A stretch of DNA of 61,270 nt, the filler included. It is 4 parts of 4 records of this genome, joined end to end, with 100 filler letters (N's around TTAATTAATTAA, not from the genome) between each part and the next. Parts side by side here need not be neighbours in the genome. Positions count along the whole stretch, not along the records: positions 1 to 10,724 come from SRR20825010_3663; 3 more parts are not named here. One strand, given 5' to 3'. Below, piece by piece: positions 1-60,561 of the stretch; within the stretch, counting starts at the first letter, position 1; every line of letters starts with the position of its first letter. Below the pieces are notes generated by a model. It did not search any database. It saw only the letters and a list, made by a program, of their open reading frames with translations, and was not told the DNA's origin. A program made the position numbers and the translations under genes.

Positions 1-468
1 TCCCGGATTTCCCGAAATTCTCCGGGGGAAGTTTTCCCGTCGGAAAGTTTTGGTCATTACCGGAAATTCTACACGGAAAATTTTTCACGAAGGTACGTTT
101 ACCTGAATTCAAGGAAGTCCACACGTTAAACTTTTCTTATCCGGAAGTTTTATACACATCGTGTATGTTAAACACCTTTCCTATGGTGATGGTTACTTTA
201 ATTTCGTAGAATGCATCTACTCAACCAAAAAAATTCTGGTGCAGCGTGTCCTCCCCGAGAGAAATACAACAACATGTACACACAGTAATACACGTTATTA
301 ATACGTACTTTAATGTGCGTTGATCTACGCGGGGTACATGAATCTTCGGAAAGGTGTGTCACTACGTATATGAACGTTACACGCAAGTACGTATATGTGT
401 TAACCAGTTCCGTTTATATACATGCCCGTAGTAAATGCCTGGTAAATACATCACTTTACTTTATTCGT

Positions 469-483
469 TGTGTTTGGTTTTTT
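469..483 (-). ncRNA. Candidate gRNA core complementary to edited COX3 (CVWFF)
   Basis: + strand tgt gtt tgg ttt ttt ends 26 nt before the motif at 509. Resembles trypanosomatid COX3 HFVDxVWFFLLR; attacgt follows, but out of frame. Confidence 0.4.
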
Positions 484-651
484 ATTACGTGTAACACAAT
501 AACATACAGGAAAGGTGTACAGCATGTAAAAGTTGATATCTATGTACATGCCCACGCGTATAAATTAATAGTTACTACCGTGTATGTTATGCATACATCC
601 GATATAGCCGTGTACACCTTTCCTAAAGTGTAATACATCTAAATTCATTAT

Positions 652-666
652 CACAAAAAATCATTC
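652..666 (+). ncRNA. Candidate gRNA core complementary to CYb PEWFF region
   Basis: Reverse complement gaa tga ttt ttt = E W F F (UGA=Trp), preceded by ata ttg ggc (ILxEWFF vs ILPEWFF). Starts about 30 nt after motif 614-623. Confidence 0.45.
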
Positions 667-787
667 GCCCAATATGTTATAATATATAACGTGCAACATG
701 TTAACAAACATGTTATTTTTTAGTATACATGTACATACACATGAATTTCGTTGACATACCTACTGACGTTATAGTTTTACGGTGTTA

Positions 788-803
788 GTATATTGTCGTA
801 GTT
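788..803 (-). ncRNA. Candidate gRNA core complementary to CYb VYCRS region
   Basis: + strand gta tat tgt cgt agt t = V Y C R S. The match ends 31 nt before the motif at 834. Confidence 0.55.
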
Positions 804-2050
804 ACTATTGTAGTATGTGAATTGCACATTACAGGAAAGGTGTACTCGATGTGTAACAAACGCGTACGCTGGAAGTTGTACTATCCTATTACTACCCGAC
901 TTACACCTTTCCAGTGGGAACAAGACAATACACACACTAAACCGTATAGTGCATTATTCTTTACGTATTAGTGACACGTTACGGTACAGTACTACTATGG
1001 TAATATACTACCTTACTACATCCATACACATACATGTTGTGTAGACACCTTTCCATGTGTATGTGTTAAAAAATAACCGTGAATAACAATCCCAAAATAA
1101 TGATGGACATCACAATGTACTGCGTAGATGGTAGCTTCCCGGATATGTTATTACTACATCCTCTTCCAGGTAGCATACATGTATATATGTCTACGTGATG
1201 TTATACCCGCGGGCACATACATTTTTGTAAGGGTGTAACGCTACTACGTGAAGGACACCTTTCCGGGATGGATATTATAATGTTGCTTAACACATACAAA
1301 AACATGTAGAAGAATAACGCCAAACAGAGCAAGTCTTCTTGTTTGAGACTGTAATGATGCATCTACACCGTATTGTTTTATTACGTTATTTGAATACTAG
1401 TATCGCCTACACCGTATGTGCTTGGTGATAGATATGTACATATACGTAGACCTAAACTTGTATACACCTTTCCTAAAGTGTGTGTATGCGGTATCTTTTA
1501 ACAAAACACAAACAAACAACACAGAATTGTAATAAACGATAATATTAACTCGGTAACGTAACTTGTTGTGTAAGCATTGCGTGTTGTTACATATGATACC
1601 GTTACACACAGATACATAGTAGACTTAAAGCCCTGTACACCTTTCCGGCGTAGTACTAACAATCTTATACGGGTGCTATCGCACAACATACACATAACAC
1701 AAAATGGGGAGTAACTACCTAATCCCATAGACATGGTGCTACCCGGGGGAATGTTAAAAACGTATGAAAACATGTACACGACATATCGTTTACACGTAAC
1801 GTGCAACCTAATTACGCGCGCACAATACCAACGAGACATTACCGTGTATGAGTTGATATTTGTTTTTGTTTGTGTAAAATCTAACCTACCCCGTATAACC
1901 TAGGAAAGGTGTACAGCATTTGCTTATACAAAGATTTAAACGGCGACTGTTTAATTATTGTCGTGTCTACGACAGATGCCAGCCTGTCTGTAACCTACGG
2001 AAAGGTGTACCCCGGTGTGTAAAGGACATGTGTAATGCATCATCATGGTC

Positions 2051-2071
2051 ATTTTGTAGTTTGTTGTCCTT
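2051..2071 (-). ncRNA. Candidate ATP6 gRNA core (FC[N/S]LLS family, copy 1)
   Basis: attttgtagtttgttgtcctt ends 31 nt before motif 2102. Differs from 3503-3523 by three transitions only. Confidence 0.65.
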
Positions 2072-2340
2072 TACTGTGTGTACGATAGGAAACATTTTAT
2101 AGGAAAGGTGTACTCTGCCAGCAAAACACATAGATTGTATGCAACCACGTGCACACGATTTAGATATGTGGCAACTATCGTTACCCCAGGCATATACTGC
2201 GTAAATCTAACTTTTTTAGGTAAGCGCCCTAAACTAAACATGTCTTTACATAAACTCACAGAGGCTTATATACGTAAGATATTACAGCATGGGGTGTATA
2301 CACACACCTTTCCAGTAGGACCTATCGACACTGCTGTAAT

Positions 2341-2361
2341 CAGAGAAAAACACTCCAGAAA
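2341..2361 (+). ncRNA. Candidate ATP6 gRNA core (FLECFSL)
   Basis: Reverse complement ttt ctg gag tgt ttt tct ctg = FLECFSL, identical to the recalled trypanosomatid A6 peptide CFLECFSLL. Starts 28 nt after motif 2304-2313. Confidence 0.7.
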
Positions 2362-3502
2362 TTTCACAAAGTACAAGCAGTATATACTGTATACATGTAT
2401 AATAGTGTCGTGTGTATAAACGTATACTCATACACCTTTCCTAGTTAATCCTATACACACTATCGTATACGCTATCGCGAATCAATCAAATAACGTACGG
2501 CGTGTAACATATCATGCACATTGCACATTACATAAAGTGTAACATTACGGAACTAGTGCGCGGTTTTATAATGTATATGTGTTCCATTCATTCTGCAGAT
2601 TTTTATGTGGCCTGTTATACTAGTAATACCAGGAAAGGTGTATGTGCTGTGTAACAATACATGACGGGGGTTGATATATAACCACACCCTAACGAAGCGT
2701 TGCACGTATAGTCGTTCATTATAGGTCGTTTATCGTGTACACGATATGGTTAGTACACCTTTCCGGGGGTTGTATCTTCCCATTACGTATACATTCAATA
2801 AAAAAAATAAAGTTACATTACATGTATGCGGTCCATCCTGGATGTGTAGTGTACGCGTCTGTTAGTTCGTGTGAGTATATTATGCATGTGCATCTAAATA
2901 AACATAGTGTACTGGATATGTGGGAGGCCTTACGTATATCGTGTTGGTCTGCCGTTATTTTGCTCTATACTGTATACTGTGTTTATTGTGTAATATTAGG
3001 AAAGGTGTATTACTATACCCCGTGTGGCGGTACTTATATAGTGCCGTATACAGTATAAGGCATGGTGAACTACCCGAGTGTGTTAAACAACCCTATCCGA
3101 CAGTAAAGAATATCCACCTAGGAAGTATGTTTTTTTACGTGTAAGTATTACAACGTATATTAACTACACGGAAAGGTGTTTTTTTCAGGCTTGTATGTTC
3201 TTCGGTTAAGGGTCTGTACTTTATTGGCTTTACGTAAAATAATGCTTTACCAGTGCACACATATTACGCAATTACGTATAACCGTACGTGCAGCAACCGA
3301 TACATGTAGACGGTTTGGTGGTTTACATTACGAATGGTGATGCACCTAGCGGGAACTACACCTACACTAACAAGGGGTGCTACACTTCTGGTAAGTAATA
3401 TACACTATACGATTACATACGTGTAGGCGGGTTATCGACAATAACATGCATTTTCCGATCTGGTCCCACGGAAATTAGCGTACACGTATACATCGTATGT
3501 TA

Positions 3503-3523
3503 GTTCTGTAATTTGTTGTCCTT
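3503..3523 (-). ncRNA. Candidate ATP6 gRNA core (FCNLLS family, copy 2)
   Basis: g ttc tgt aat ttg ttg tcc tt = FCNLLS (recalled A6 RLFCNLLSSH). Ends 32 nt before the variant motif at 3555. Confidence 0.7.
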
Positions 3524-4684
3524 AGTTACTATGGGGTTAAGCTATACATGGCAAGGAAAGGTGACACACGTTGTGTACTAACAGTTTACTGGTATATGCT
3601 TTACGGATGACACGCAGTACACCGCGCACATACCATGTTTAAAAATGTATGTGTATAATACACAGTTAGACTATATGTATCTGTTACCACGTAAATACTT
3701 TGATGCCACCCCATGCAAACGTTGTATCGTATACACCCCGAGATGAAGAACTTACCAAACACAGATGGACCGTGTATCATCATATAATATAAACGTGTGT
3801 ATTATAATTTGTATGAGCGATAGCGATATACACAAGCACAACACCTGTTATAAGCGGAAAGGTGTACATCCTGTAATGGTATGGTGTAATATATTCTGTG
3901 GTGCAACATGTTATTACATTAATCCCATTAATGTCCCGTGGGGGATATACATGTTGTTGTAACGACGTATAACCATATGTCCTTGTACAGCACAGTTATG
4001 TCTACGTCGGTGTTTTGCTCTTTGTATACACAGTAAAGCATTACGTCCTACAGGAAAGGTGTATTATACAGTGTATGTACTGTAATATACTACACATGTA
4101 AACTACGGACGGGCCTTAACGGAAATTATTATTGTACATGAATAGTCCTTGCAGGCAGACATCGTACACACAGTATCCGGGTATAACCACATGGTAATGG
4201 ATTACATTACACGTACGCATGGTGTTGTATACAACCCGAGGTATTACGTAGGACAGGTATGTACACAGAATACGTACCACAGGTAACAACGGCGTGTATA
4301 ACTATCTTGTACGTATTTGTGTTTGCGTGTTATTGTAATACTGAACATAGTACTGTACGGAAAGGTGTAACTCTTGACATGTACGTGCGCATGAACAACG
4401 TCACGCAAACTACGTACACAGTGTCTGTCATATGTAACATTATATACATGTACACTTCCAACGGGTGTTCATTGTTTTTGTTGTTGCAGTATACCTTTTT
4501 AATCGTATTATAGGAAAGGTGTATCCCACGCAATATACGCGTAGGTGCACACCCTATCACGACGCAAATATGTCTGTTGTAACACGTAATGCCACGGGTT
4601 TTTCTGGGGTCATATCACATACTAACAAGCGTGTTGTAACGTTACTACACCTTTCCGAGAATAACAGTGTGTGTCATAATAATT

Positions 4685-4708
4685 ACAAAAATCAAAAAAT
4701 AGTATCAA
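4685..4708 (+). ncRNA. Candidate gRNA core (LFFDF; ATP6 or COX3)
   Basis: Reverse complement ttg ata cta ttt ttt gat ttt tgt; compare A6 LLMFFDFF. Starts 29 nt after motif 4647-4656. Confidence 0.4.
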
Positions 4709-4928
4709 AATTGTATAGTACAGCGTTTAACTATAATCGTGTACTTTACTTGTGAGTGTGTTTTGTTTTGTATTAACAGCACCCACTATCATTACTTTGC
4801 GGGAAAGGTGTATAGGCTTCGGGTGACATCTGCTAATTATATTACAGCCAATATGTGTATACATGTAGTGTACCGTAGCGTAAGCATCCAACACTTATTG
4901 TTGGTTACGATAAACACACACGGAACTT

Positions 4929-4958
4929 TGTAGTTTGCGTTTTGTTTTTTTTGTATTT
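4929..4958 (-). ncRNA. Candidate RPS12 gRNA core (CSLRFVFFVF)
   Basis: + strand translates CSLRFVFFVF vs recalled T. brucei RPS12 CCLRFVLFVL. Ends 30 nt before motif 4988. Low complexity weakens the match. Confidence 0.4.
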
Positions 4959-6506
4959 ACGTTACACGGTTTTATGTAATACACATAGGAAAGGTGTATC
5001 CCTGGTAACGTAGGTTGATAGTTTAGCATTATAGCAGTATCCTGTTGATTGCATACTGTATGGTATGCCTTGTGTGGTACATTCTATGCTGTAACACAAT
5101 TGCCGTAGACTAAGTTGCAAAGTACATTATTAATCAACTACGTTTTTGTTGTTTTTAGTATACGCGACACTTTACAACCTATTCCGGAAAGGTGTTATAC
5201 ATACTCACATACACGATGACAGGTGTATACCACATCTTGTACAGGTAAAACTAACTACACGTACATATAACTTATACCAAGCAAGTTCACCAGGCAACTT
5301 ATACTGTTAATATCAAATGATATGACGTGGATACTTTCCCGGCAAGAACAATGTTAGTCTACGTAAAACACGACATGTTTATACACACAGGTATGCTTTC
5401 GGATGTATAATGACTACACCTTTCCACGTAATACACACAAGTACGTTATGTGCTAACGCACAACAAAATTAAAAAATAAGTATAAACCACATGTCCTTAT
5501 ATGATAATAGTGTTCTCCTATACGGGGTAGGATACTTCACGTATATCAACGGTACATAGTAGACATGTGTACTTATCACCCGGTAATAACAACAGTAATC
5601 TGCATGCCTGGTAGACAGCTGTACGTACAGTACTCCGAGCAGTATATGTGCACACACCGTTGTGTAATATCCTTGTTTTACAGCCCGGGTAATGTATACT
5701 ATGTAACTATGTTACGTCATGTATAAACGTGTACTATAAATATACACACCTTTCCTATTATCCACGTAACATACACTTACCACCCAAAAAAAACAAACAA
5801 ACAGCATACATTACATACTATATACATTTGTAGACACACGTAATCCATGTCATACACACTTTTTTTACCGAGGTGGTTAACGTTATCCGCGGATACCGCA
5901 ACTGCCTATGCGTATGCAATTACATGCCCAGGTATGTAGTAACATGTTTTACACAGCATGGGGTTACACAGATAAATATCGGCACATGTAAAATAGTAAA
6001 AAACATCTTTCCATAGATCACAGTATGGTTAGTTAAGTAAACCTAACCAACAACGTGCATTGTAACAAAGTAATACAACACGTACTTTACACGTCACGGG
6101 TTGTTAATATTACACCCTTCTACTATTACGAGGTTCCTCCTGCATTGCATTATTATTTTGGGATTGATACTTGTAGCAAGAATTCTGTGTATATCTCGGA
6201 AAGGTGTGGGTGTTACCCGCGTAACCAGGTAACACATCGCCGTATACAGTGTTAAACCCACAGTTATTTTTATAATATTCTGTACCTTGTGTAGTAAAGT
6301 TCCTATTACCGCAATACTATAAGTACGTATCTTTTCTGTGTAACCTTTACGATGTGCGGTTGTACTGCCGCCTATAAAACCTGAGTTGCTTCGATGACTC
6401 ATGGATGTAAGTTATTTGTCCTATTTTTTTTGATGATGGTCCTGCATGGACCTGTACCCGCCTACCCACACCTTTCCAAATGTGTAATGAATATTTAAAA
6501 CCATAC

Positions 6507-6526
6507 AGGACAACAACTTACAAAAC
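6507..6526 (+). ncRNA. Candidate ATP6 gRNA core (FCNLLS family, copy 3)
   Basis: Reverse complement gttttgtaagttgttgtcct is 18/20 identical to 3503-3522. Starts 30 nt after motif 6468-6477. Confidence 0.6.
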
Positions 6527-9341
6527 ATGTATAGCATATTTTGCATGTAGTTGGCATCTGTAACTGTTATGGGAGTAACATACTATCCTGGTACGTATAG
6601 CGCTGTATGATCTTACAGTCGTGTACGCTACGTTCCCACTGGGTGTGTCACGTCACGCTAACGTTCACACCGACCCAGCATGTTTAACAACGCGTATTTA
6701 AAAAGTATATATCCGGTAGTGTTATTTTATAACAGTACGTAGTATGCACACCTTTCCTAATGTTACGTTCGCCCCGGTAGTACACGTATAATCACAAAAA
6801 AAAGATTACAACGTGTATGCGCGTAATACTATGTACGGGTGTTAGTGCACATCCAAAGTTGTGTGTTAGTAACGCAGTACACACCTTTCCTTTTCGTTCT
6901 TTAATACCGTATGCAACACACCCTGCGGGAAAGTATATGCGCTTATGGAACTGCGTTGTCCCGCTTATGCCGTGCATGCCGGTTTTCTGTCATTACACGT
7001 ACATTGCTCCGGTACATTATAGTATGTTCTTTTTATATGGGTACACACCTTTCCTGTAAGTACGTCGTGCATTACATTACAACAACAACAAAACAAAACC
7101 GAAGTAATAACATGGTACATCACAACCCTCGCAAGTTACGTACTTACGTGTGATAGGATGATATATTACATGTCTGGTAAGTGGATGCTTACTTTTTGGC
7201 ATTTGTTTTCCTGTACCTTACGTCGGTTTATGTTAAGTACAATACATCAGGACCGGTAGGGTACTTACGGTAACATACTGTGCAGTTACATTGTATACAC
7301 GCATACTATCACAATATATAGGATACATGTTTGACACCTTTCCGGCAAGTTATAATACCTTATACATAGTGCTACCGCACAAGTAAACTTATCATTATTA
7401 CGTTACGTTTGTACTATTTATATACGCGTACCGCTTACAAAAAAGAGTAATATATGTGAGTGTGTGTTGCTAACCTAACACACCTTTCCTGGGTAATGTA
7501 CTTACACCTATATGGTTCGTATACACTCACCCTCCCTAGTAGAGTACTGCATACAAACTGTACATAGTATGTAAGACTTACCCACATATATAAATATTAT
7601 ACTACGTATAACATACAACCCACGGTATGCTAATACGATGCATAGCCAAGAATAATAAGCGTGCTCCACCGGGCTTACCGGTTCTTATTTTGGGATTGTA
7701 TGTTTACGTACATGGAAGTGCGCGTACGGAAAGGTGTTCACACGTATGTAACCTACCATATGTATTATACATAGTGTTTTGCAGCAGTATACCCTATAGA
7801 ACAGTTAAGTGTAAACTGTGTACCACCGTACATCTTTCCGCTACGGTTATTGCTTATGATGTGTGCGTTTACATATGCACAAATATATGTAAGACCACAC
7901 CACACCACTTACATACAGAAATAACCTACCCTGTATAATACGTTGTATGTAAGCAATCATGCACCCGGTCTGGTACAATTAATGATATACATTAGGTTTT
8001 TTTTAATGTACTAATTACTACAGTGCAAGTTTACAACTGCTGGAAAGGTGTACCTCTGGTGAGAGGTTAACATTACACGCCTGCATTATTGCAGTATGCT
8101 TGCAGCATGTAGACGTATTGCAACCATGTACAACAACCAAAATAAAAGTAGAATACCCCCCCCCGAGTATACGTACCCATACTATCACAAATATATATTA
8201 ACTGTTGCTGAACGGGTGTAACGCAGGTTGTTATACTCGTAACGGTTGTATGATTACCTCGACGTACGGCATCAACGTATACTCAGATCGCTGCATATAC
8301 GGTATACACCTTTCCGGATGGGATATAAATATGTATGGCTTAGTCGTTACACTCCAAATTAAATAATGTAACACTTACTAACATACACTGTTGTACGTGT
8401 AATGCCCGTAATCCACAATATGTTGTTTGCTTACTACCTAGTTGGGTATAGATGGTTATCAAACGTATATACACCTTTCCTAGAAAATTAAAGTACACTC
8501 CGTTACATGCAAACAACAACGCATCCAACACAGTAGAGGTAACAGTAAACGTTACGGATGCAGTTGTATGTCTCGTATGCGTGGTGTAACCGGCACGCTG
8601 TATATAAGCCCGTATACGTAAAGACGCGTATGTAACGTTATACGTACAATAGTAACACCGGTGATATCTTGTTCGGTTTTAGTTGTTTAAGTTTACCGGA
8701 TGTATGATTATTACAGTTAACCCTGTTATAGTGGAAAGGTGCAGCCAATCACCCTACTAGGGGTTACTTTTATTAAACCTGCACCTTTCCTTATTTGTTG
8801 CGTTTTAAAAACCCGTAATACTTAAAAAACAACAAATAGCAAATTGTTGTACGTGCAGTTACATAGTATAGAGACACGTTACGTATATGTCTAGCGTGTA
8901 CACCTTTCCGAAAGCATCATACAGGCCTGGTAAAAACAACATCCCAAAATAAGGATATACTATTAATTTATACATACTTTTGTCGTTTTTAGTGGGGCGT
9001 AACTTTTGCACGGCGTATGGACCTGTATTACGCATACGTGTAGTATTCAAGACAGGCTATACTCTTACGTATTTCCGTTTGGTTTCATTGAGTTGTGTTC
9101 TGTGTAATATGTTAAACGTTATCCCTGGAAAGGTGTGATATGGGGGTCGTCCAGGTGACTACAATTTTCTGTAGACAGTACCACGATTACAACTACGTGC
9201 CGTACATATTACCACACGCACCACGTACGATAGTAAGTAATGTAATAACATACGAAACCCGGTTTTAAAATATAGAGCTCCTCGTGCATGTAAATGCAGA
9301 CTGTTCGTACACCTTTCCAGTATCACAGTAACGTACTTGTT

Positions 9342-9368
9342 CATACATACACAACATAAATAAAACAT
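9342..9368 (+). ncRNA. Candidate gRNA core complementary to the COX1 5' end (MFYLCCVCM)
   Basis: Reverse complement atg ttt tat tta tgt tgt gta tgt atg vs recalled trypanosomatid COX1 start MF(F/W)LCLVCLS. Lies downstream of motif 9309-9318. Confidence 0.5.
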
Positions 9369-10724
9369 AACGGTTATCGTATAAATTATAAACATTTATG
9401 TATGCGGGTACACTAACACCTTTCCGGATATGATTTGTTATCGTACATTAATCGTAAACACACAAAAAACGAGGGCTTACCATGTTGTTTGTAATATTTA
9501 CGCACGTTGTATATGCTACGTCTATTGTATACGTGTGGTATAAAGATATACGTTCAGTATTAACAGTATCCACGGGGTGGTGTATGTACGCACATGAGTT
9601 GTATACTACTGTTATGCATTACAGCCTACAGGATTTATTACCACAACAAATTACTGTGGTGTATATTACTAATATACAACAAATGCGGGTATACCTTTCC
9701 TGTATGTGTAATTGTTTATTTACAAAAAACAAAAACACACCACACAATTTTATATTGGTCTACGTGGGTAGTTACTACATCCTACACGGAGTATAACGCG
9801 AACCGTACACGTCAAGTTTTGTTTTTTTTGTTTTTGGGTTGGTGTGTGCTTGCTATGTATGGTTCCCGGGAAAGGTGTGGTAGCAATCGTGTTGTATATG
9901 TACACCTTTCCTATTAGAACTATGCGTAAATGTATGTGCCTTACACAAAACACAACGTACAATAACCGAGTTGGGACACGTACTTCGTACATCATGTTCC
10001 GTAGTATTGCTAGTATGTTGCATGGTGTGTATATACCTAGTTTACACACCTTTCCTAAGGCACGTAAAAGCATGGGATATACATAAAAACAAAAAAGGAA
10101 GGTTCCATAATTATGTATACACCACGCTACGTAATGTGTGTATGCATACACTATCAAAGTGGATCCTACTGGTATTTCCGGGGAATACACATGTGCATTT
10201 GACTTTGTATTATTTATTTCGTGATAACGAATATATGTATACACATGCTCGGTCCATGGAAAGGTGTACTACCACAACATACGTGCTATATGGGTATACA
10301 TGTGCACGCAACGCAAAGAACGCGTACCCTCCACTGGAAATATATGTCTATACGTTACACCTTTCCGTATGCGTTACGTTTATGTTTGTATATGCATACA
10401 ATCACAAACAGAACGTACAAATAAAAAAATGAAAACACGCTGTTAAGAGTATAAGCATTACAATACACGCACAGTATGGTGTAAGGTACTAGTTGGACTG
10501 TTAATAATACGTCACGCGCATCCGAGGGTGTGCACCTTTCCTATACACCATGTACAAACCCGGATCATAAACAATTCACACAAACAAAACTGTATAGCGT
10601 AAAGTACTACGTATATAGGTGTGAATTGTAAACAATGTCGTGTACAAGTAAAGGGACAAGAGTTAATTACGACATTAATACACAAACTTTTATTGGGAAG
10701 TTATCTCAGGTTTAAGAAACTTCC

Positions 10725-10824
10725 NNNNNNNNNNNNNNNNNNNNNNNNNNNNNNNNNNNNNNNNNNNNTTAATTAATTAANNNNNNNNNNNNNNNNNNNN
10801 NNNNNNNNNNNNNNNNNNNNNNNN
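10725..10824. other. Artificial contig spacer
   Basis: N-run + TTAATTAATTAA (stops in all six frames) + N-run; composition changes abruptly. Confidence 0.99.
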
Positions 10825-29094: not shown

Positions 29095-29194
29095 NNNNNN
29101 NNNNNNNNNNNNNNNNNNNNNNNNNNNNNNNNNNNNNNTTAATTAATTAANNNNNNNNNNNNNNNNNNNNNNNNNNNNNNNNNNNNNNNNNNNN
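29095..29194. other. Artificial contig spacer
   Basis: N-run + TTAATTAATTAA + N-run. Confidence 0.99.
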
Positions 29195-53292: not shown

Positions 53293-56186
53293 ATGAAACC
53301 ATTCTGGAAGGCAGGATTCCTGACGGTAATACTTTCTTTACTTGCCTACTTTATTTTTAAGAGTGATGATCAATGGTTTACTAAGGAGTACAACCGATCA
53401 ATAGCCTTTGAGGCCATTCCTGATTCATTAGAAACTCAGGAGAGCGAGGCTGAATTCGAGAACCCAATCAAGCGACTTCAATTTGAATACGAGATGCTCG
53501 CCAATCCTACTACGGGTAAAATTCCATCAGGAATAAGAGAAAAGGAACTTCGTTTTGCCGAGGCGCAGAAGAGTATTTCAGGATTGAATATTAGGATGCA
53601 AGCAAGAGGTTTAAGTCAAACTCAAGCGTCTTCTTTTGTAAGCAGAGGCCCTTATAATATTGGGGGAAGAACCCGTGCCCTCGGTATAGATATTTCGAAT
53701 GAAGATGTGATTTTAGCTGGGGGGATTTCTGGTGGCGTTTGGCGATCGGCAGATGCTGGTCAAACTTGGACAAGAACCTCTTCTGTAATGCAGCTGCCGG
53801 CAGTTTCGGCCTTGGTGCAGGATCAACGTACAGGCAATACAGGCACATGGTTTTATTCAGCAGGTGAACTTTTCGGTAATTCCGCCTCCGCCAATGGAGC
53901 ATTTTATCTTGGGGATGGTATTTTTAAATCTACAGACGGTGGATTGTCATGGACGGTAATTCCTACTACTACCCAAAATGATAATACTGACCTTGGTGAA
54001 TTCGGTTTAGTCGGTGAGATAATAATTGACAATTCTAATGCTGATGTACGTGAAATGTATGCCGCTAGGCTCGGGAATATTATAAGGACTACAGATGATT
54101 TTGCTACCTACTCAATGGTATTGGGTGCAAATAATACCGGCTTTTCATATAGTGACGTGGCCATATCCAGTACTGGAGTTTTAATTGCAGCAATTGCCAA
54201 TAATGTTAATAATGGGCAAAATGCGCAAGAAGGAATTTACAAGTCTGAAGATGGCTTGACTTGGGTTAATATTAACCCGCCTTCAGGTTTGCCAAGCTCA
54301 TACGAAAGAATTGAAGTAGCATTTGACCCTCAAAACGAAGATGTATTTTATGCTGTAGGCTCCAGCTTTTTACTTAAACATACCATTAGCACTGGAGAAT
54401 GGGTTGCACTCACTAGTAATCTAGGTATTTCTACAGATTCTGGACAGGGACATAATACTCAAGGAGGTTATAATCTGATCATGAAGGTTCATCCTTCAAG
54501 TTCAGACACCATTTTTATTGGAGGAACAAATCTTTTGCGAAGTGCCTCGGCTTTTACTACCAGTTCTGATAGAGTAAATATTGGTGGATATAGAGAGGAT
54601 AATAACTCAGAGAGCTTTCCGAAATACGACAACCATCATCCAGATATTCATGCCTTGGTGTTTTATCCATCAGACCCAAATAAAATGCTTTCGGGATCAG
54701 ATGGTGGGGTTCATGTGACACTTGATAATGCCGTTGCCGGCACGAGCAGCCCAGTAGTTTGGCAGTCTCTCAATAATGGTTATCTCACCACACAGATTTA
54801 TGCCATTGACTATTACCGATTTAATAGAGGAGAAGAACTTTTGATTGCTGGAATGCAAGATAACGGAACTTGGGGTGCAAATGAAAACCTCTCCAATACA
54901 GATTGGGTTGAAATTTTTGGAGGAGACGGTTCATTCAATGCTATCACCTATAATTCATTGTATGTTTCTGCCCAAGAGGGTCAATTACGAAGGTTTGAGG
55001 TAAATGCTGAAAGCAATACCTATGAGTATAAAGGAGATATCTCTCCGAGTAAAGATGATACTGAGTTTTTGTTCGTCAACCCGTTTATTTATGATCCGGT
55101 AAATCAAGATAGAATGTATGTTGGGGCAAAAGGTAAAATTTATTTCACCCATAATATCCGTGAAAACCCTGGGGTTGGAGAGTGGGTTGGGATATCCATG
55201 GGCACCGCTAGAACAAATGATTTTGTGTCAGCCCTTACCGCGTCTATTGAACCTGAAGGAGTACTTTATTTCGGGACACGCAATGGTAAAATATTCAAAG
55301 TAGCCGATGTAAATAGCGATCTTACTCCTGTGGAGGTTACAGGAAGTAATATGCCTGGTGGAACTATCACAAGTTTAACTGTTGATCCAGCGGATGCAAA
55401 TCGAGTATTTGCTACCTACGGGAACTACGGAATTGTGAGTGCTTGGATGAGTGAAAATGGCGGGCAAACATGGGCCTCCATTTCAGGTAATCTAGAAGAG
55501 AATGCTAATGGATCGGGGAACGGCCCTTCGGTACGATATATAGAAATGTTGCCAAATGGATCGTCTCCGATTTACTTTGTAGGGACATCTCTAGGGCTTT
55601 ATAAAACTTCTGTTTTAGATGGCGATAACACCGTTTGGATACAGGAGGCCTCTGGTATTATAGGAAACTCAATTGTTAGCATGATTAAAGTCAGGCCTAT
55701 AGAAGGGCAAGTAGTGGTTGCTACACATGGTAATGGTGTTTTTCAGGCCAGTTATGATGTGGCATTTGCTCCAAATATCAACTATTCCATCAATTACGCA
55801 ACACAAGAGGCAACTCTTAAAGGACCCATTTCCTTTACCACAGGAGCTGGGTTTTCATATCAATGGATTAAAGACGGCCAAGATATTTCGGGAGCAACAA
55901 GTTCCGAATTATTGGTTTCAGAGCCTGGGGTTTATAGACTGAGGGTTACGGATCAATTGGGGCCAGTGGAAGTTTCCAATCCTATTAACCTAAAGTTAGA
56001 TAAAACGGCACCTGTTGTAAGCTCTATTACGAGGCTAAACCCAACCCAAGAGCAGGTTGAAACTGCTGAGGTTAATTTCCAGGTCACTTTTGATGAACCC
56101 GTTCAAGGGGTAACTACTGGTTCATTTGAACTTGCTGGAACAGCAGCAGGTAACATTGCATCAGTTTCGTATGTTTCCTCTACTGT
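53293..56186 (+). CDS. Large secreted BNR/VPS10-like beta-propeller protein with Ig-like domains (3' truncated)
   Basis: GPYNIGGRTRAL; Asp-box repeats (SADAGQTW, STDGGLSW, SENGGQTW); HPDIH; GMQDNGT; ATHGNG; YQWIKDG. Confidence 0.85.
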
Positions 56187-56286
56187 NNNNNNNNNNNNNN
56201 NNNNNNNNNNNNNNNNNNNNNNNNNNNNNNTTAATTAATTAANNNNNNNNNNNNNNNNNNNNNNNNNNNNNNNNNNNNNNNNNNNN
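56187..56286. other. Artificial contig spacer
   Basis: N-run + TTAATTAATTAA + N-run. Confidence 0.99.
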
Positions 56287-56854
56287 TTCGCGGGATGTCG
56301 GCATTCTCGTCCGGCATGTCTCCGATGATTCGAGCCTTGCCGAGGTTGCCGTCAGGGATCCCGATATCGCCGCCATGCTGGGCTACCTGCGCAACAACCG
56401 CCTCACCGAGGCGGCTTTCGTGGCAAAGGATTACGAACGCTGGCTCTGGAGCAAGCGCCGCAACCCGTTTGCCGCGGCCGCCGGCGGCTATGTGCTGCTG
56501 GCCACGCAACTGGGTTTCGAGAACGCGCCGTGGACGGACTGGATCCGCAATCTCAATGCATGGTTTCCCACCATACCAGATGGCGCGGTGCTGGAGGGCT
56601 ACATGTGCCTGAACGGCCCGAAACCGCTTCGCGACTTCGAGCGCGCGGCTGAGTGCTTCCAGAGCGCCTTCGAACGCGGCATCCCGCACTACACCATCGG
56701 ATTGTCCTGGCTCCGGAGCGGCCTGCGGTCGCTTGCGGGCGATTTCGGCCATCTCAGGGATGCGGCCGAGACCGTCTCGCTGGCATCACGGCTGTCGGAG
56801 ACCTCGCAGGTGTTTTCGTCGTTCCGGTTGAAGCGGGAGCAGGCAAATGACTGA
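56287..56854 (+). CDS. Hypothetical protein, 5' truncated
   Basis: Frame open from the contig edge; NPFAAAAGGYVLL...PDGAVL...GIPHYTIGL; stop overlaps the next start. Confidence 0.7.
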
Positions 56855-57932
56855 TTTCTTTACGATCGACATGCTGCCGGCGCGTGAGGGCGACTGCATC
56901 TGGATCGAGTACGGGAATGAATCGAACACACACCGGATCCTGATCGATGGCGGCCGGTCCAGCGCCTATGACACGGTGAAAGAGCGGTTCGACGCCTTGC
57001 CGGATGCCGAACGCGAGCTGGAACTCCTGGTCTGCACCCATGTCGACGCCGATCACATCGAGGGCCTGCTCAAGCTGATCGAGGATCCCGCGCTGCCGGT
57101 CAGCTTCAAGGATGTCTGGTTCAACGGCTATGTCCACCTGACTCGGCCCACCGGAGCCGAGACCTTCGGCGCAAAACAGGGCGAACAGCTGACCGATGGC
57201 ATTGTCGACCGGCGCTGGAGCTGGAACGGCGCCTTCGGCCATCAGTCTGTGGTGGTCGGCGATAACGGGCCGCTGCCTTCCGTCACGCTTGCCGGCGGGA
57301 TGAAGGTCACGCTGCTGTCGCCGCACTGGCCGGCGCTGGAAGCGCTCAGGCCGGTCTGGAAGAGGGAATGCGAGAAGGCCGGCCTGATCCCCGGTGTCCA
57401 GGCGCGTCCGGAGGTCGACGACGGGCTGGAGCGCTTCGGCGGGCTTTCGGCGGCCAAGGTTCGTGAGCTTGCGGCGGCGCCCTACAAGAAGGACGGGTCG
57501 AAGGCGAACGGCTCCTCGATTGCCCTGCTGCTGGAGTACGGCGGCAAGACGGCGCTGCTTGCGGGCGATGCCCATGGCGAGGCGCTGCAGGCATCGATCG
57601 GGCGGCTGACCGGCGGCGGCAAGCTCGCCGTCGACGTGCTCAAGCTGTCGCACCACGGCAGCCAGGGGACCCTGCCGCCATCGCTCATGGACGCGGTCGA
57701 CTGCGACAGCTTCCTGGTCTCGACCGACGGCTCGCGGCATGGCCACCCCGACCGGGAGGCGATCGCCCGGTTGGCGGTTTCCCGTGAGGGCGGGTTTTCG
57801 CTGATCGGCAATTACCGCTCGGCGGAAATGCTCGAATGGGACCAGGCCGCCCTGAAGCGGGCTTTTGGCTACAGCGTGCGGCTGCCCGGCGACAGTGAGC
57901 CGGACGGCATCATGCGCCACCGGCTTCTGTGA
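56847..57932 (+). CDS. MBL-fold metallo-hydrolase (ComEC/Avs1a-like)
   Basis: GDCIWI; LIDGG; THVDADHIEG; NGSS; GDA; KLSHHGS; HGHP. Confidence 0.88.
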   Translation: MTDFFTIDMLPAREGDCIWIEYGNESNTHRILIDGGRSSAYDTVKERFDALPDAERELELLVCTHVDADHIEGLLKLIEDPALPVSFKDVWFNGYVHLTRPTGAETFGAKQGEQLTDGIVDRRWSWNGAFGHQSVVVGDNGPLPSVTLAGGMKVTLLSPHWPALEALRPVWKRECEKAGLIPGVQARPEVDDGLERFGGLSAAKVRELAAAPYKKDGSKANGSSIALLLEYGGKTALLAGDAHGEALQASIGRLTGGGKLAVDVLKLSHHGSQGTLPPSLMDAVDCDSFLVSTDGSRHGHPDREAIARLAVSREGGFSLIGNYRSAEMLEWDQAALKRAFGYSVRLPGDSEPDGIMRHRLL

Positions 57933-58130
57933 CTGAGGCTTCCGTAACAGGGGCTTCCGTCACGGAAGCTGGCGGCAGCCGCCGGAATCCTGCGCCGGTG
58001 AAAGGACGGGAGTGACGTGTCGCATCACGCCGGGTAAACTTTGTCACATATTCGTGTCTTGATTTTGTTGCGCTGCAGCATTAAATCGGAGCCAGGATAT
58101 TTCGGGAGGAATGACCGTTGGAGGTCGACA

Positions 58131-58736
58131 ATGCTCTTGAAGTTTCTGTTCAAACCGCGTGAACCGCAATTCGCCCTGGGCGATGACATCAGGCTGAGAT
58201 ATCTCGGCCCCTCGGACGCGGCCGCTTTCCGCGACCATATCCACGAGCTTCACTTCGAGGATTTCCGCGACCGTTTCAACGGCCTGGTGTCCGACTACTG
58301 GCTCGACAAATACATCGCCCGGTCGCTGAACGAGGCCATCGTCATCGGCGCCTTTGCCGGGGATCACCTGGTCGGCGTGGGCGAGCTGCACACCGGCGGC
58401 AGGATCGAGCCGGGGCAGGGCGAATCGGCCTTCTCGGTGGCGTCGGACTGGCGGCACAAGGGGCTCGGCACCATCCTCTTGAAGGCGATGCTGCGCGCCG
58501 CCTCTGAGAACGACATCTCCACCATCATCGTCATGACCGGCTCGCAGAACCACGCGATGAAGGCGCTGGCGCGGCGCTTCGGCGCCAGGATGCAGTTTGC
58601 CGGCGACCAGTCGGTGGGCCGGATCAATGTCGCCGACGGGCTGAGGCTCGCCGCCCGCAGGCTCAAGGACCGGAACTTCCCGGCGCCTCCGGTTCCTGTC
58701 GCCGATCCGCCCGCAGTTTCGGCGTCGCTCATATAA
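58131..58736 (+). CDS. GNAT family acetyltransferase
   Basis: ESAFSVASDWRHKGLGT; NHAMKALARRFG. ATG at 58131 with GGAGG upstream. Confidence 0.88.
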   Translation: MLLKFLFKPREPQFALGDDIRLRYLGPSDAAAFRDHIHELHFEDFRDRFNGLVSDYWLDKYIARSLNEAIVIGAFAGDHLVGVGELHTGGRIEPGQGESAFSVASDWRHKGLGTILLKAMLRAASENDISTIIVMTGSQNHAMKALARRFGARMQFAGDQSVGRINVADGLRLAARRLKDRNFPAPPVPVADPPAVSASLI

Positions 58737-58973
58737 GAAACTGATTCAACTGTCTTTGAAACAGAGTCCGGAAAATTGCTCAAGTCTCTGAGATGTAACA
58801 GAAAATCGTTCCGGTTCGGGGCGTTCGGCCCGGTGCCGGACAGCCGTCCGGCGGGACACGGTGTCGACGAGGCGGGGCCGAGGCGGATAAACCATTGGGG
58901 CTTGCGGCCCGGATCTGTATAGTCGGGGCCACTGCAACCGGCGGGCGCGCCCGCCGCAACCCGGAGGATTTCC

Positions 58974-59411
58974 ATGACTGACAAGAAGGCCACCGACGAC
59001 CTGGTTTCGATGTTCATGAATTTCGGCAAGGACATGAAGCTGCCCACTCCCGACCTCGAGGCGATTGTCGAACGCCACAAGAAGAACCTGCAGGCGCTCG
59101 ACACCGCGGCCAAGACCGCCGGCTCCGGGGCGAGCTCGATCCTGGCGCGGCAGCGCGAGATGGTGCAGGAGGCGCTCGACGAGATTTCGGCGATGGCCGA
59201 GAAGGTCAAGGGCGGCACTGATCCGCAGAGCCTGATGGCGGCGCAGACGGAGTTCGCCCGGCGCTCGTTCGAAAAGGCCATCCAGAACACCTCCGAGATC
59301 GCCGAACTGGCGCAGAAATCCTCCACCGACGCCTTCAAGGTGCTGCAGCAGAACATGCAGGAAACGCTCGAGGAAGCGCGCAAGGCGATGACGGGCCAGA
59401 GCAGGAAATAG
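58974..59411 (+). CDS. phaP: Phasin (PHA granule protein)
   Basis: HKKNLQAL..A; RQREM; FEKAIQNTSEIAELAQKS. GGAGG RBS. Confidence 0.85.
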   Translation: MTDKKATDDLVSMFMNFGKDMKLPTPDLEAIVERHKKNLQALDTAAKTAGSGASSILARQREMVQEALDEISAMAEKVKGGTDPQSLMAAQTEFARRSFEKAIQNTSEIAELAQKSSTDAFKVLQQNMQETLEEARKAMTGQSRK

Positions 59412-59625
59412 GCTGGACCTGCCACTTCGATCTCACGGGCCGGTGCATCGCGTCACCGGCCCGTTTTCGTTTGCGGCCCTGGCGCCGATGTCGTCTTTCC
59501 GATGCGGTCGACACGACCGGGATGACGTGTCCCTGCGGGTTGCGCCAGGTGCGCCGGGGCGCATAGGGTGCGGCAGGGCTGCGATACACATCGCGATACA
59601 CAAGACGACCAACGAGGAAACAAGC

Positions 59626-60561
59626 ATGCGCATTGTCACCGGTAACGATATCCGATCCGTCTGTTCCTGGCCGTTCGCGGTGGAGGCGCTGAGGGCCGGC
59701 CACCTGATGCCGCCGGCGGATTTGCGCGATTCGCTGATCGAGCAGGCGGGCCGCAAGATGCTGGTCCGCACCGCCTGGATCCCCGGCCTTGCGTCGGGCG
59801 TCAAGGCGGTGACGATCTATCCCGACAATCCGTCCGCGACCCCGCCGATGCCGTCGGTGCAGGGGCAGGTGCTGCTGTTCGACGAGGCGCGGGGCGATGT
59901 GGTCGCGGTGCTCGAGGGCGTTGACCTCACCGCCTGGAAGACCGCCGGCGATTCGGCGCTCGGCGCCTCGTGCCTGGCGCGGCAGGATGCCGCCACCATG
60001 CTGATGGTCGGCGCCGGCTCGATGGCGCGGCCGCTGATCGACGCGCACCGGACGATGCGGCCGTCGCTCGAGAGAGTGCTGGTGTGGAACCGGGGGCGGG
60101 AGCGCGCCGAGGCGCTTGCGCAGGCGCTTGCCGATGACGGGATTGCCGCCGAGATCGCCACCGATCTCGACGAGGCCGTCTCGCGCGCCGACCTGATCTC
60201 GTCCGCCACCATGTCGACCGAGCCGCTGATCAGGGGCGCGGCGCTCAAGCCCGGCGCGCATGTCGATCTCGTCGGCGCCTACACGCCCTCGATGCGCGAG
60301 GCCGACGACGCGGCGCTGACCCGCGGGCGGCTGTTCGTCGACAGTTTCGCCACCACCGTCGGCCATATCGGCGAGGTGATGATCCCGATGGCCGCGGGCG
60401 TGATTTCCCGCGACGACATTCAGGGCGACCTGCACGCCCTGGTGCACGGGCGCACGAGCCGCCACTCGCCCGACGAGATCACCATCTTCAAGAACGGCGG
60501 CGGCGCCCATCTCGACGTGATGATCGCGCATGCGGTCTATCTGGCGCTCGAGGGGCGCTGA
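59626..60561 (+). CDS. Ornithine cyclodeaminase / mu-crystallin family
   Basis: GVKAVTIYPDN; LTAWKTA; GAGSMA; HVDLVGA; FKNGGGAHLD. Confidence 0.9.
   Translation: MRIVTGNDIRSVCSWPFAVEALRAGHLMPPADLRDSLIEQAGRKMLVRTAWIPGLASGVKAVTIYPDNPSATPPMPSVQGQVLLFDEARGDVVAVLEGVDLTAWKTAGDSALGASCLARQDAATMLMVGAGSMARPLIDAHRTMRPSLERVLVWNRGRERAEALAQALADDGIAAEIATDLDEAVSRADLISSATMSTEPLIRGAALKPGAHVDLVGAYTPSMREADDAALTRGRLFVDSFATTVGHIGEVMIPMAAGVISRDDIQGDLHALVHGRTSRHSPDEITIFKNGGGAHLDVMIAHAVYLALEGR

Follow-up and report, generated by a model that had tools for sequence, protein, structure and literature searches.

The analyzed window is a 61,270-nt stretch of DNA made up of four contigs joined by N spacers, and positions 1-10724 are one of these (contig 1). 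The array of short repeated cassettes found there therefore fills a whole contig rather than a genome region. The array is marked by the 10-base motif ACACCTTTCC. Allowing at most one mismatch, the window contains 60 copies against 3.95 expected (sd 2.01), a number reached in none of 100 shuffles. Within 172-10541 lie 56 of the 60 copies (49 exact, 7 with one mismatch), and the remaining four are isolated one-mismatch matches, scattered. The features of contig 1 are given below; each cassette is represented by 70 bp counted from the motif start.

1..171, no strand, left contig end, cassette-free, built of TTTCCCGGAA / TTTCCCG-N2-CGGGAA-type units
172..10601, both strands, whole array: 56 polar cassettes, 32 on + and 24 on -, median free gap ~110 bp, without ORFs, tRNAs or Rfam families
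10602..10724, no strand, right contig end, cassette-free, short GGAAGTTTC-like end only; N spacer from 10725

Cassettes:
172..241, +, motif 172-181, A/C tract 222-233
288..357, -, motif 348-357, weak tract 314-322
449..518, -, motif 509-518, tract 460-483
614..683, +, motif 614-623, tract 652-660
774..843, -, motif 834-843, tract 774-803
903..972, +, motif 903-912, tract 930-943
1045..1114, +, motif 1045-1054, tract 1085-1097, ATCCCAAAATAA at 1089-1100
1255..1324, +, motif 1255-1264, tract 1289-1326
1464..1533, +, motif 1464-1473, tract 1500-1523
1637..1706, +, motif 1637-1646, tract 1682-1704
1843..1912, -, motif 1903-1912, tract 1844-1875
1939..2008, -, motif 1999-2008, tract 1948-1966
2042..2111, -, motif 2102-2111, tract 2052-2081
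2304..2373, +, motif 2304-2313, tract 2346-2361
2432..2501, +, motif 2432-2441, tract 2483-2494
2572..2641, -, motif 2632-2641, tract 2600-2610
2755..2824, +, motif 2755-2764, tract 2796-2811
2939..3008, -, motif 2999-3008, tract 2941-2962
3110..3179, -, motif 3170-3179, tract 3128-3136
3495..3564, -, motif 3555-3564 (1 mismatch), tract 3498-3538
3796..3865, -, motif 3856-3865, no clear tract
3993..4062, -, motif 4053-4062, tract 4009-4025
4299..4368, -, motif 4359-4368, tract 4316-4336
4453..4522, -, motif 4513-4522, tract 4463-4486
4647..4716, +, motif 4647-4656, tract 4685-4699
4742..4811, -, motif 4802-4811, tract 4750-4771; tail-to-tail with 4647..4716, the window's closest convergent pair (155 bp)
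4928..4997, -, motif 4988-4997, tract 4927-4958
5126..5195, -, motif 5186-5195, tract 5142-5156
5416..5485, +, motif 5416-5425, tract 5455-5491
5746..5815, +, motif 5746-5755, tract 5779-5810
6003..6072, +, motif 6003-6012 (1 mismatch), tract 6039-6054
6138..6207, -, motif 6198-6207, tract 6156-6166, ATCCCAAAATAA at 6153-6164
6468..6537, +, motif 6468-6477, tract 6497-6527
6748..6817, +, motif 6748-6757, tract 6793-6803
6881..6950, +, motif 6881-6890, weak tract 6914-6923
7045..7114, +, motif 7045-7054, tract 7079-7128
7334..7403, +, motif 7334-7343, weak tract 7374-7382
7480..7549, +, motif 7480-7489, tract 7523-7536
7668..7737, -, motif 7728-7737, tract 7680-7705, ATCCCAAAATAA at 7685-7696
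7830..7899, +, motif 7830-7839 (1 mismatch), late tract 7894-7908
7982..8051, -, motif 8042-8051, tract 7995-8004
8306..8375, +, motif 8306-8315, tract 8349-8358
8471..8540, +, motif 8471-8480, tract 8510-8532; 76% alike over -1..+71 to one cassette of a metagenome locus (L086)
8673..8742, -, motif 8733-8742 (1 mismatch), tract 8669-8688
8781..8850, +, motif 8781-8790 (1 mismatch), tract 8807-8843; back-to-back with 8673..8742 (48 bp)
8900..8969, +, motif 8900-8909, tract 8932-8949, ATCCCAAAATAA at 8941-8952
9067..9136, -, motif 9127-9136, tract 9077-9105
9309..9378, +, motif 9309-9318, tract 9345-9371
9416..9485, +, motif 9416-9425, tract 9456-9470
9691..9760, +, motif 9691-9700 (1 mismatch), tract 9722-9747
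9809..9878, -, motif 9869-9878, tract 9816-9852
9902..9971, +, motif 9902-9911, tract 9943-9967; back-to-back with 9809..9878, the window's closest divergent pair (33 bp)
10046..10115, +, motif 10046-10055, tract 10081-10096
10198..10267, -, motif 10258-10267, tract 10204-10223
10357..10426, +, motif 10357-10366, tract 10398-10438
10532..10601, +, motif 10532-10541 (1 mismatch), tract 10569-10590

A family of high-copy, non-coding molecules

Contig 1 is non-bacterial DNA and stands apart from the bacterial contigs of the window; its GC content is 38%, compared with 40-62% in the three unrelated neighbours. Its 10.7 kb contain stop-free frames of at most 182 aa under code 11 and 202 aa under code 4, and searches of the contig revealed no Pfam match above the cut-off, no tRNA and no Rfam family. 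Replication or other protein genes were likewise absent from all 16 contigs examined (contig 1 and 15 metagenome contigs). With a word depth of 423 in run X1 (~400x), the molecule is also abundant. The same run contains records of 10665, 10130 and 8519 nt (depths 1104, 828 and 81) that carry the terminal 50 nt of contig 1, and further 10.5-11.5-kb records with this end are found in runs X4 and X7. Depths of the molecules thus span 80 to 1100 in a 212-Mb run. Contig 1 is one of several ~10-kb molecules with common terminal repeats, and one among many protein-free, very high-copy molecules of this size from a marine/estuarine eukaryote.

According to BLAST, bases 1-50 of contig 1 match the ends or near-ends of four other cassette-bearing contigs (L082_83, L047, L013 and L068), of which the last, 6.6 kb long, is bounded on both sides by an inverted repeat of 292 bp. 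Beyond base 1 the sequence continues in contigs of other runs. The shared terminal repeat was not matched by BLAST in the right end (10602..10724). TTTCC/GGAAA palindromes make up the terminal repeats, and their core is also that of the cassette motif. CSB-3 (GGGGTTGGTGTA, up to 2 mismatches) is absent from every assembled terminal region; the few 2-mismatch matches are dispersed inside arrays.

Orientation-dependent spacing and cassette anatomy

The original prediction rested on start-to-start distances between motif copies, and our recomputation reproduced them: 155-266 bp (mean 215.0, n=13) for convergent pairs (ACACCTTTCC then GGAAAGGTGT), 33-270 bp (mean 143.2, n=13) for divergent pairs (GGAAAGGTGT then ACACCTTTCC) and, as claimed, never below 96 bp in the same orientation (n=29). 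To assess chance, we shuffled the orientation labels 5000 times with positions fixed. Both the difference between convergent and divergent means (71.8, p=0.0044) and a convergent minimum of at least 155 (p=0.0038) are unexpected under random labels; the same-orientation minimum of 96 alone is not significant in the window (p=0.13). The classes were expected to stay distinguishable in a larger set of contigs, and they do. Across 17 independent metagenome loci from 15 other contigs, which add 314 motif copies, the medians are 249 bp for convergent (n=65), 177.5 for same-orientation (n=160) and 122 for divergent pairs (n=72). Convergent and divergent distances differ strongly (Mann-Whitney p=2.9e-13), and none of 5000 label shuffles reaches the observed difference of means. 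Orientation-dependent spacing is thus confirmed and replicated.

The inferred asymmetry of the cassette holds as well, with practically all of it on one side of the motif: divergent motifs come as near as 10-36 bp while convergent tract-bearing pairs are never closer than 148 bp. The proposed cassette size of ~95 bp, however, is too large. Valid same-orientation cassettes are spaced at 79-88 bp, and the 352 intervals are incompatible with a 95-bp footprint (p=0.0003), whereas 70 bp from the motif start equalizes the three gap distributions (Kruskal-Wallis p=0.99; medians of the orientation classes 106, 111.5 and 112). Footprints of 60-80 bp are acceptable and 10 bp is not (p=4e-17). A single polar footprint of ~70 bp explains all three spacing classes: they arise because ~70-bp cassettes with the motif at the 5′ edge do not overlap, and nothing further is needed. 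The cassettes are placed in either orientation, with free gaps of ~110 bp. Sequence similarity between cassettes is limited to about -10..+70, with 122 of 199 alignments in register and none reaching +85.

We compiled an anchored composition profile of 356 cassettes. The order is Y-RCACCTTTCC, 7 C-poor bases, a spacer and an A/C-rich tract at +37..+63. Position -1 is T or C in 86% of cassettes, and C drops to 5-8% at +10..+16 from a background of 20%. The tract itself has 45-68% A and 4-17% G, with the lowest G (4-8%) at +39..+52, and background composition is regained by about +66. An A+C fraction of at least 0.73 at +38..+59 is seen in 194 of 368 cassettes, compared with 3.8% of random 22-mers. 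On the motif side the tract has a sharp edge, T|A(A/C)A, and it fades on the far side. The profile reveals a single upstream motif and no downstream partner element. The predicted spacer of ~30 nt agrees with these data, as the motif ends at +9 and the tract most commonly starts at +35..+40 (a gap of ~27 bases). The predicted RNA of 40-45 nt does not: the conserved or specific part past the spacer covers only ~25-35 nt (+37..+63/70), as follows from a footprint of ~70 rather than ~95 bp.

The tract is, judging from its recurrence, sequence-specific. Identical 23-24-nt tracts occur at +37..+61 with unrelated spacers and downstream DNA, also across samples. Tract windows matching at 20/20 positions were observed 3 times and at 19/20 positions 6 times, versus 0 and 2, respectively, in three column-shuffles. 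The 12-mer ATCCCAAAATAA has 4 copies in contig 1 (0.02 expected) and one more in a TARA contig, and all five are located at +41..+44 of a cassette. Cassette pairs with similar spacers differ in the tract, and vice versa.

Putative guide-RNA genes and their alternatives

We consider it somewhat probable that the cassettes are guide-RNA genes carried by the mitochondrial DNA of a kinetoplastid-like protist, marine and unsequenced, with Trypanoplasma borreli as its nearest counterpart. Contig 1 would then most likely be mitochondrial (kinetoplast-type) DNA of such a flagellate. Each cassette might act as an independent, one-directional mini-gene, in which (Y)RCACCTTTCC together with the ~7 C-poor bases would be a promoter-proximal signal. 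The transcript would begin at T|A(A/C)A, ~26-30 bp beyond the motif, and be a short unstructured A/C-rich RNA of ~25-35 nt. Such RNAs would pair with U/G-rich mRNA, a composition that uridine-insertion-edited mitochondrial messages have, and would act as guide RNAs. Several results count against the guide reading or give it no support. CSB-3 is missing from the assembled ends, and G is rare in the tract, which implies fewer G:U pairs than in trypanosomatid guides. Mismatches between similar tracts (AC 400, AT 309, AG 152, CT 139) show no A/G or C/T excess, predicted from G:U wobble, over three shuffles (AC 378, AT 306, AG 157, CT 114). Staggered suffix-prefix overlaps of tracts, expected for an editing cascade, are not above control (1-2 observed versus 0-4).

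The product might instead come from the opposite strand, as a U/G-rich RNA ending in a T/G-rich tract ~27 nt before GGAAAGGTGT, for example a guide whose U-rich tail is encoded in the template. In that case the motif would serve as a terminator or as a signal for 3′ processing, or else as the promoter of an antisense RNA by which the 3′ end is set. Runs rich in T often act as stop signals, antisense transcripts reportedly delimit guide 3′ ends in T. brucei, and a tract that is sharp on the motif side and fades away from it would fit a fixed 3′ end too. We nevertheless regard this as unlikely. Identical tracts and the recurrent 12-mer indicate that the tract holds specific information and is not a generic tail or stop. 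Moreover, according to the consulted parts of the literature, the guides of T. brucei and T. borreli are preceded by a conserved motif that is about as far away as here, and the T|A(A/C)A edge resembles the A-rich guide starts of T. brucei (5′-RYAYA, PMC6868439). Quite unlikely, in our view, is that the cassettes are not genes at all and represent selfish or structural non-coding high-copy DNA (linear plasmid-like or satellite), with motif and tract as protein-binding, replication or packaging sites. Because the terminal palindromes share the motif core, one DNA-binding protein could recognize both ends and cassettes. This would leave unexplained why a sequence-specific tract of 25 nt, variable yet recurrent, stands at a constant distance, and why 70-bp units strictly avoid overlap while their orientation is free; nor does any of the 16 contigs contain a gene for replication or for any other protein.

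Guide-like RNAs for a different organellar RNA-guided process in another protist group, such as the matching and joining of split mitochondrial gene fragments in diplonemid-like flagellates, would suit the marine setting and the multipartite, high-copy, non-coding DNA. Diplonemids are protists that abound in the sea and whose mitochondrial DNA is multipartite (PMC7049700). However, the chromosomes described in the consulted part of that paper mostly carry a single gene module, set in constant regions specific to the chromosome class, unlike the ~50 uniform cassettes here, and the A/C-only composition suits U/G-rich edited RNA better than ordinary coding modules; we therefore consider this very unlikely. 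Least credible, to the point of being close to negligible, is a small-RNA array of prokaryotic or phage type, CRISPR-like or serving some other RNA-guided defence, that belongs to one of the window's bacteria. It is suggested by the bacterial contigs that contig 1 adjoins in the window, and is opposed by the mixed orientation, the irregular spacing, the lack of protein genes on the contig and the GC difference from its neighbours. A dense mixed-orientation array was lacking at all 101 loci drawn from the genomes of 185,579 prokaryote species and at all 3 viral loci, and phage and plasmid collections gave no blastn match.

Comparison with known systems

The layout is best matched by the guide-RNA chromosomes of kinetoplastid mitochondria. 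A formal resemblance also exists to nematode 21U-RNA (piRNA) clusters. There, autonomous mini-genes numbering in the thousands occupy both strands, and every small RNA is preceded by a short motif at a constant distance. Those clusters are nuclear and megabase-scale with a motif unlike that found here, whereas the present cassettes reside on ~10-kb molecules with common ends and variable depth.

The kinetoplastid comparisons refer to the consulted portions of the cited papers. Of the minicircle-encoded gRNAs of T. brucei, more than 94% begin 30-32 bp beyond their upstream repeat (Cooper et al. 2019, PMC6868439), close to the ~26-30 bp proposed here; the A-rich start and the density of about one cassette per 200-250 bp are also alike. 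T. brucei cassettes, in contrast, are enclosed by two 18-bp inverted repeats and occur almost exclusively on one strand, with 3-4 of them on each 1-kb circle, which also bears CSB-1/2/3 (PMC6868439). Here each cassette has one motif, on its upstream side, the cassettes lie on both strands and a molecule has ~50 of them. Perkinsela gRNA candidates share the A- or A/C-rich tract on the 5′ side, and U and G predominate in the edited mRNAs of Perkinsela (David et al. 2015, PMC4669381). Marine host association and an enormous amount of mitochondrial DNA are further likenesses; its contigs are short (mean 730 bp), and no common flanking motif is reported in the portion consulted (PMC4669381).

The guide-RNA kDNA of T. 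borreli (‘ScaI-flanked contigs’) comprises contigs flanked by inversely oriented terminal repeats, with on average 23 putative gRNA loci each on both strands. Every locus is preceded, at 20-40 bp, by the motif RYAGGCTTT, and the guides, with a median of 28 bp, are short and form few G:U pairs (Gerasimov et al. 2022, PMC9679448). Differences are seen in molecule size (about 6-12 kb here versus ~70 kb), cassettes per molecule (~45-55, roughly one per 190-300 bp, versus ~23), the motif (RCACCTTTCC here), the terminal units (~40-50-bp TTTCCCG-type repeats versus 1-kb ScaI repeats) and the lack of a CSB-3-like 12-mer in the assembled ends here, where the guides are putative. In both, different molecules carry terminal repeats in inverse orientation that enclose a unique interior, and putative guide loci, tens per molecule, are scattered over both strands without a placement pattern. 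High redundancy, short putative guides with few G:U pairs and a short conserved motif upstream of each putative guide locus are likewise common to the two.

Motif arrays and orientation-dependent spacing

Since the four contigs of the window are unrelated, we judged contig 1 separately, and any finding across the joints would be an artefact. The window is made up as follows.

1-10724: contig 1, 38% GC, filled by the cassette array
10725-10824: joint, N run around TTAATTAATTAA
10825-29094: contig 2, ~55% GC, planctomycete-type genes
29095-29194: joint, N run around TTAATTAATTAA
29195-56186: contig 3, ~40% GC, ordinary bacterial genes
56187-56286: joint, N run around TTAATTAATTAA
56287-61270: contig 4, ~62% GC

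Contig 1 has a GC content of 38% versus 40-62% in the other three contigs. Contig 2 codes for PSCyt1-PSCyt2-PSD1, DUF1501, a GH10 xylanase-like gene, a polysaccharide pyruvyl transferase and a giant cadherin/Big_9 repeat protein (>1450 aa, truncated at the contig end), and contig 3 for GH3-family, MutS2 and E1 dehydrogenase genes. Three long ORFs, one of 964 aa that runs off its contig and two of 388 and 431 aa, lie at 53293-56186 and 56754-60630 and matched no Pfam family at E<=1e-5.

Allowing at most one mismatch, ACACCTTTCC occurs 60 times in the window (3.95 expected), and 56 of these copies, 49 of them exact, lie at 172-10541 of contig 1. They are found on both strands (32 on +, 24 on -) at spacings of 33-385 bp. 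A CRISPR array consists of direct repeats in a single orientation, regularly spaced by unique spacers; the mixed strands and irregular spacing here do not fit one.

According to the original prediction, distances between neighbouring motif starts depend on their relative orientation. Recomputation from the window gave the same figures: 155-266 bp for convergent pairs (mean 215, n=13), 33-270 bp for divergent pairs (mean 143.2, n=13) and a minimum of 96 bp for pairs in the same orientation (n=29). When orientation labels were shuffled over the fixed motif positions of the window, the convergent-divergent difference (71.8 bp, p=0.0044) and the convergent minimum (p=0.0038) departed from chance, whereas the same-orientation minimum did not (p=0.13). 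We also scanned metagenome contigs for two same-strand motifs 134-164 nt apart, obtaining at least 126 stretches in 124 loci. Among the matches listed, at least 15 contigs carry a dense mixed-orientation array at 35-40% GC (14 from one TARA sample, 1 from another marine sample), and the others are mostly chance pairs or tandem repeats. The unique sequence of these array contigs is unrelated to that of contig 1; all they have in common with it is the motif, base composition and contig ends. In 17 loci from the 15 contigs among the matches listed (65.7 kb, 314 motif copies), median spacings were 249 bp for convergent (n=65), 177.5 bp for same-orientation (n=160) and 122 bp for divergent pairs (n=72), a separation (Mann-Whitney p=2.9e-13) matched by none of 5000 label shuffles. 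Since the classes separate in these further loci, and better than in the window, they do not become indistinguishable in a larger set of contigs.

Size and anatomy of the cassette

The cassette is about 70 bp long and lies wholly to one side of the motif, with free gaps of about 110 bp in any orientation. The one-sided layout originally proposed is thus retained, but its size of about 95 bp is not. We modelled a cassette as F bp running from the motif's first base (+0), with nothing upstream, and subtracted the implied lengths in each orientation class. At F=70 the gap medians are 106, 111.5 and 112 bp, and the classes are indistinguishable (Kruskal-Wallis p=0.99). Footprints of 60-79 bp are acceptable (p=0.25-0.99). 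The corresponding values are p=0.046 for 85 bp, p=0.0003 for 95 bp and p=4e-17 for 10 bp. The tightest valid neighbours, 79-88 bp apart in the same orientation and 148-156 bp apart when convergent, agree with this equalisation of gaps, and we therefore set the unit at ~70 bp rather than 95. Only two convergent pairs are nearer than 148 bp, one of 59 bp (metagenome locus L040:5081-5149) and one of 49 bp (merged L061/L062 contig:2996-3054). In each, at least one copy is devoid of the A/C-rich tract; these pairs may represent decayed cassettes or chance copies.

We profiled cassette anatomy in 356 cassettes whose flanks are complete. The motif reads R-CACCTTTCC, RCACCTTTCC being found in 370 cassettes, and is preceded at position -1 by T or C in 86% of cases. 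It is followed by a C-poor segment at +10..+16 (5-8% C vs 20% background), a stretch of background composition at +17..+36 and an A/C-rich tract at +37..+63 (A 45-68%, G 4-17%), in which G is lowest (4-8%) at +39..+52. Composition is back to background by about +66. Tract starts peak at +35..+40, follow a T and read A(A/C)A. At +38..+59, 194 of 368 cassettes have an A+C fraction of at least 0.73, compared with 3.8% of random 22-mers. In the 356 profiled cassettes no second conserved element was detected downstream, information content beyond +65 being no higher than background. Folding of 120 of the 370 cassettes against mononucleotide shuffles revealed no extra secondary structure relative to flanks (mean z -0.5 to -0.7 everywhere); the cassettes are in fact less stable than their flanks (-6.9 vs -11 kcal/mol for 65 nt).

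Unrelated cassettes resemble one another locally only within about -10..+70; of 199 alignments, 122 keep the register and not one extends as far as +85. Several pairs are identical over 23-24 bases at +37..+61 but unrelated in the preceding spacer and the following DNA. Matching 20-nt windows with 20/20 identities were observed 3 times versus 0 in the column-shuffle control, and those with 19/20 identities 6 times versus 2 in three column shuffles; near-identical window pairs total 386 against 377 summed over three shuffles. The 12-mer ATCCCAAAATAA is present in four copies on both strands of contig 1 (0.02 expected) and in a fifth in a TARA contig, all five at +41..+44 of cassettes with unrelated surroundings. 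Moreover, pairs similar in the spacer are not alike in the tract, and vice versa. Accordingly, a stretch of ~25 nt that begins ~27 nt past the motif is under sequence-specific constraint and is present in redundant copies. Over 76 kb, staggered tract overlaps (suffix-prefix, exact or purine/pyrimidine-collapsed) did not exceed the reversed-partner control, and tract mismatches showed no transition excess that would mark wobble pairing.

Nature and distribution of the array DNA

No reassignment of stop codons opens real ORFs in contig 1. With code 4, few stop-free frames of at least 130 aa occur in 76 kb (the longest is 239 aa), and the four scanned against Pfam gave nothing above the cut-off (best E=0.014). 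The tRNA search found none, and Rfam yielded no family, its two matches being below threshold and due to chance (17.8 and 24.9 bits vs gathering scores of 100 and 80). Extreme dinucleotide bias throughout contig 1, spacers included (GA/TC 0.48-0.51, AG/CT 0.65-0.68, AC/GT 1.6), points to a tendency towards purine/pyrimidine alternation.

In sequencing run X1 the entire contig 1 is present at a word depth of 423, and its terminal 50 nt recur in other records, 10665, 10130 and 8519 nt long (depths 1104, 828 and 81). Runs X1, X4 and X7 contain several records of about 10 kb with this end, and estuary and other runs contain further ones of 10.5-11.5 kb. None of the runs listed is recorded as RNA; in run X5, labelled RNA by guess, matches are 212-303-nt pieces at depth 2-6, resembling low-depth DNA contigs. 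Related TARA contigs among the matches listed span 6.6-12 kb. At least six metagenome contigs have ends in common with contig 1, and their inner sequence is unrelated. These ends consist of arrayed TTTCCCGGAA / TTTCCCG-N2-CGGGAA units; one contig (L068) has a 292-bp inverted repeat at both ends. As contigs of other runs continue at least 255 nt beyond base 1 of contig 1, the molecule ends are not assembled. Short palindromes around TTTCC...GGAAA make up the terminal arrays at window 1-171, at L068:1-300 and 6280-6622, and at the ends of L013, L016, L047, L061/62 and L082/83. Their core is that of the cassette motif (CC-TTTCC), and one DNA-binding protein might therefore recognise both ends and cassettes. 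The first 275 bases of L082 (TARA scaffold60334_2) hold about three copies of a ~79-bp tandem repeat unlike the usual terminal units.

Among prokaryotes, none of 101 motif-pair loci from 185,579 species genomes is such an array; all are chance pairs or single-orientation tandem repeats. Phage and plasmid collections gave no blastn match to the array DNA, and none of three motif-pair loci in viral contigs is alike, two being chance pairs and one a 52-bp tandem repeat. The latter, on a giant-virus MAG contig (L002), has the 10-mer seven times in a single orientation, and is not made of cassettes. Literature matches to both 10-mers, among those listed, are unrelated and mostly primers, and both 10-mers as well as the sub-motifs CACCTTTCC and CCTTTCC are absent from the Perkinsela supplementary text. 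In the accessible literature on diplonemid, Perkinsela and bodonid kDNA, neither the motif nor 10-kb guide molecules came up.

Possible relationship to known guide-RNA systems

We consider it probable that the cassettes are autonomous ~70-bp small-RNA mini-genes on high-copy, multipartite, non-coding extrachromosomal DNA of a eukaryote. Among known systems, such an architecture (protein-free molecules with common ends and dozens of polar units on both strands, in which a short motif precedes a short specific sequence by a set distance) corresponds to guide-RNA-bearing kinetoplast DNA. Kinetoplastid guides pair, G:U included, with edited mitochondrial mRNA and have a 5' anchor; they are redundant and overlap in cascades, and their primary transcripts, ~25-60 nt long, bear 5' triphosphates and 3' oligo(U). 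Bodo caudatus was reported in the 1980s to have non-catenated circles of 10-12 kb. As in kinetoplastid minicircles, molecules of the contig 1 family differ from one another and have common ends, and the motif stands a short, constant distance ahead of what we infer to be a small-RNA gene. The minicircle element CSB-3, GGGGTTGGTGTA (at most two mismatches), is absent from the assembled terminal regions of 18 sequences, in which terminal arrays are incompletely assembled; within arrays there are only scattered two-mismatch matches. On balance, we lean slightly towards contig 1 working like a kinetoplastid minicircle family. However, it is only a candidate member, because the assembled ends lack CSB-3, mismatches show no transition bias, tract overlaps stay at control level, and its RNAs, their mRNA targets and its taxon are putative. 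The lack of CSB-3 and of a wobble signature, together with the polar single-motif cassette, leaves room for a different RNA-guided process. It is very unlikely, in our estimate, that these are ~10-kb 'all-guide' chromosomes of a marine protist with an undescribed organelle genome, whose ~25-nt A/C RNAs drive something other than classical U-insertion/deletion editing. Such RNAs may be the long-sought guides for matching and joining split mitochondrial gene fragments in diplonemid-like flagellates, or may serve a new editing chemistry.

For a minicircle-like family, the closest known description is Trypanoplasma borreli kDNA. There, contigs between inversely oriented terminal repeats carry an average of 23 putative guide loci spread over the two strands, the motif RYAGGCTTT lies 20-40 bp upstream of guide loci, and the guides are short (median 28 bp), highly redundant and poor in G:U pairs (PMC9679448). 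In T. brucei, over 94% of guides begin 30-32 bp past the upstream repeat with an A-rich start (PMC6868439); there, an 18-bp inverted-repeat pair frames the gene, whereas here each cassette has one conserved element. In Perkinsela, all that candidate guides have in common is a tract rich in A or A/C at the 5' side, and U and G predominate in the edited mRNAs (PMC4669381). By likeness to these three systems, transcription would start at the T|A(A/C)A edge, with the motif as a promoter-proximal element and the A/C tract as the guide, and the A/C-rich RNA would pair, mainly by Watson-Crick pairs, with U/G-rich edited sequence. Diplonemid mitochondrial chromosomes mostly have one coding module each within a class-specific constant region (PMC7049700), in contrast to the array contigs, which show no sign of coding and hold ~45-55 uniform cassettes apiece.

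Should the guide-RNA reading be true, kinetoplast genome architectures would extend beyond parasites to an uncultured or unsequenced marine or estuarine lineage. The rule of motif, +36 start and 70-bp footprint would enable mRNA-independent gene calling in metagenomes and single-cell data. In practice, it would also draw attention to eukaryotic organelle DNA that may enter bacterial bins. By the table of a 2026 review, a 0.7-2-kb minicircle holds one to a few guides, a Vickermania circle 2-5 and a ~70-kb T. borreli molecule ~23 (PMC12936278). If the reading holds, ~50 single-motif cassettes per ~10-kb molecule would be new among guide-RNA DNA and the densest guide-RNA gene arrangement to date.
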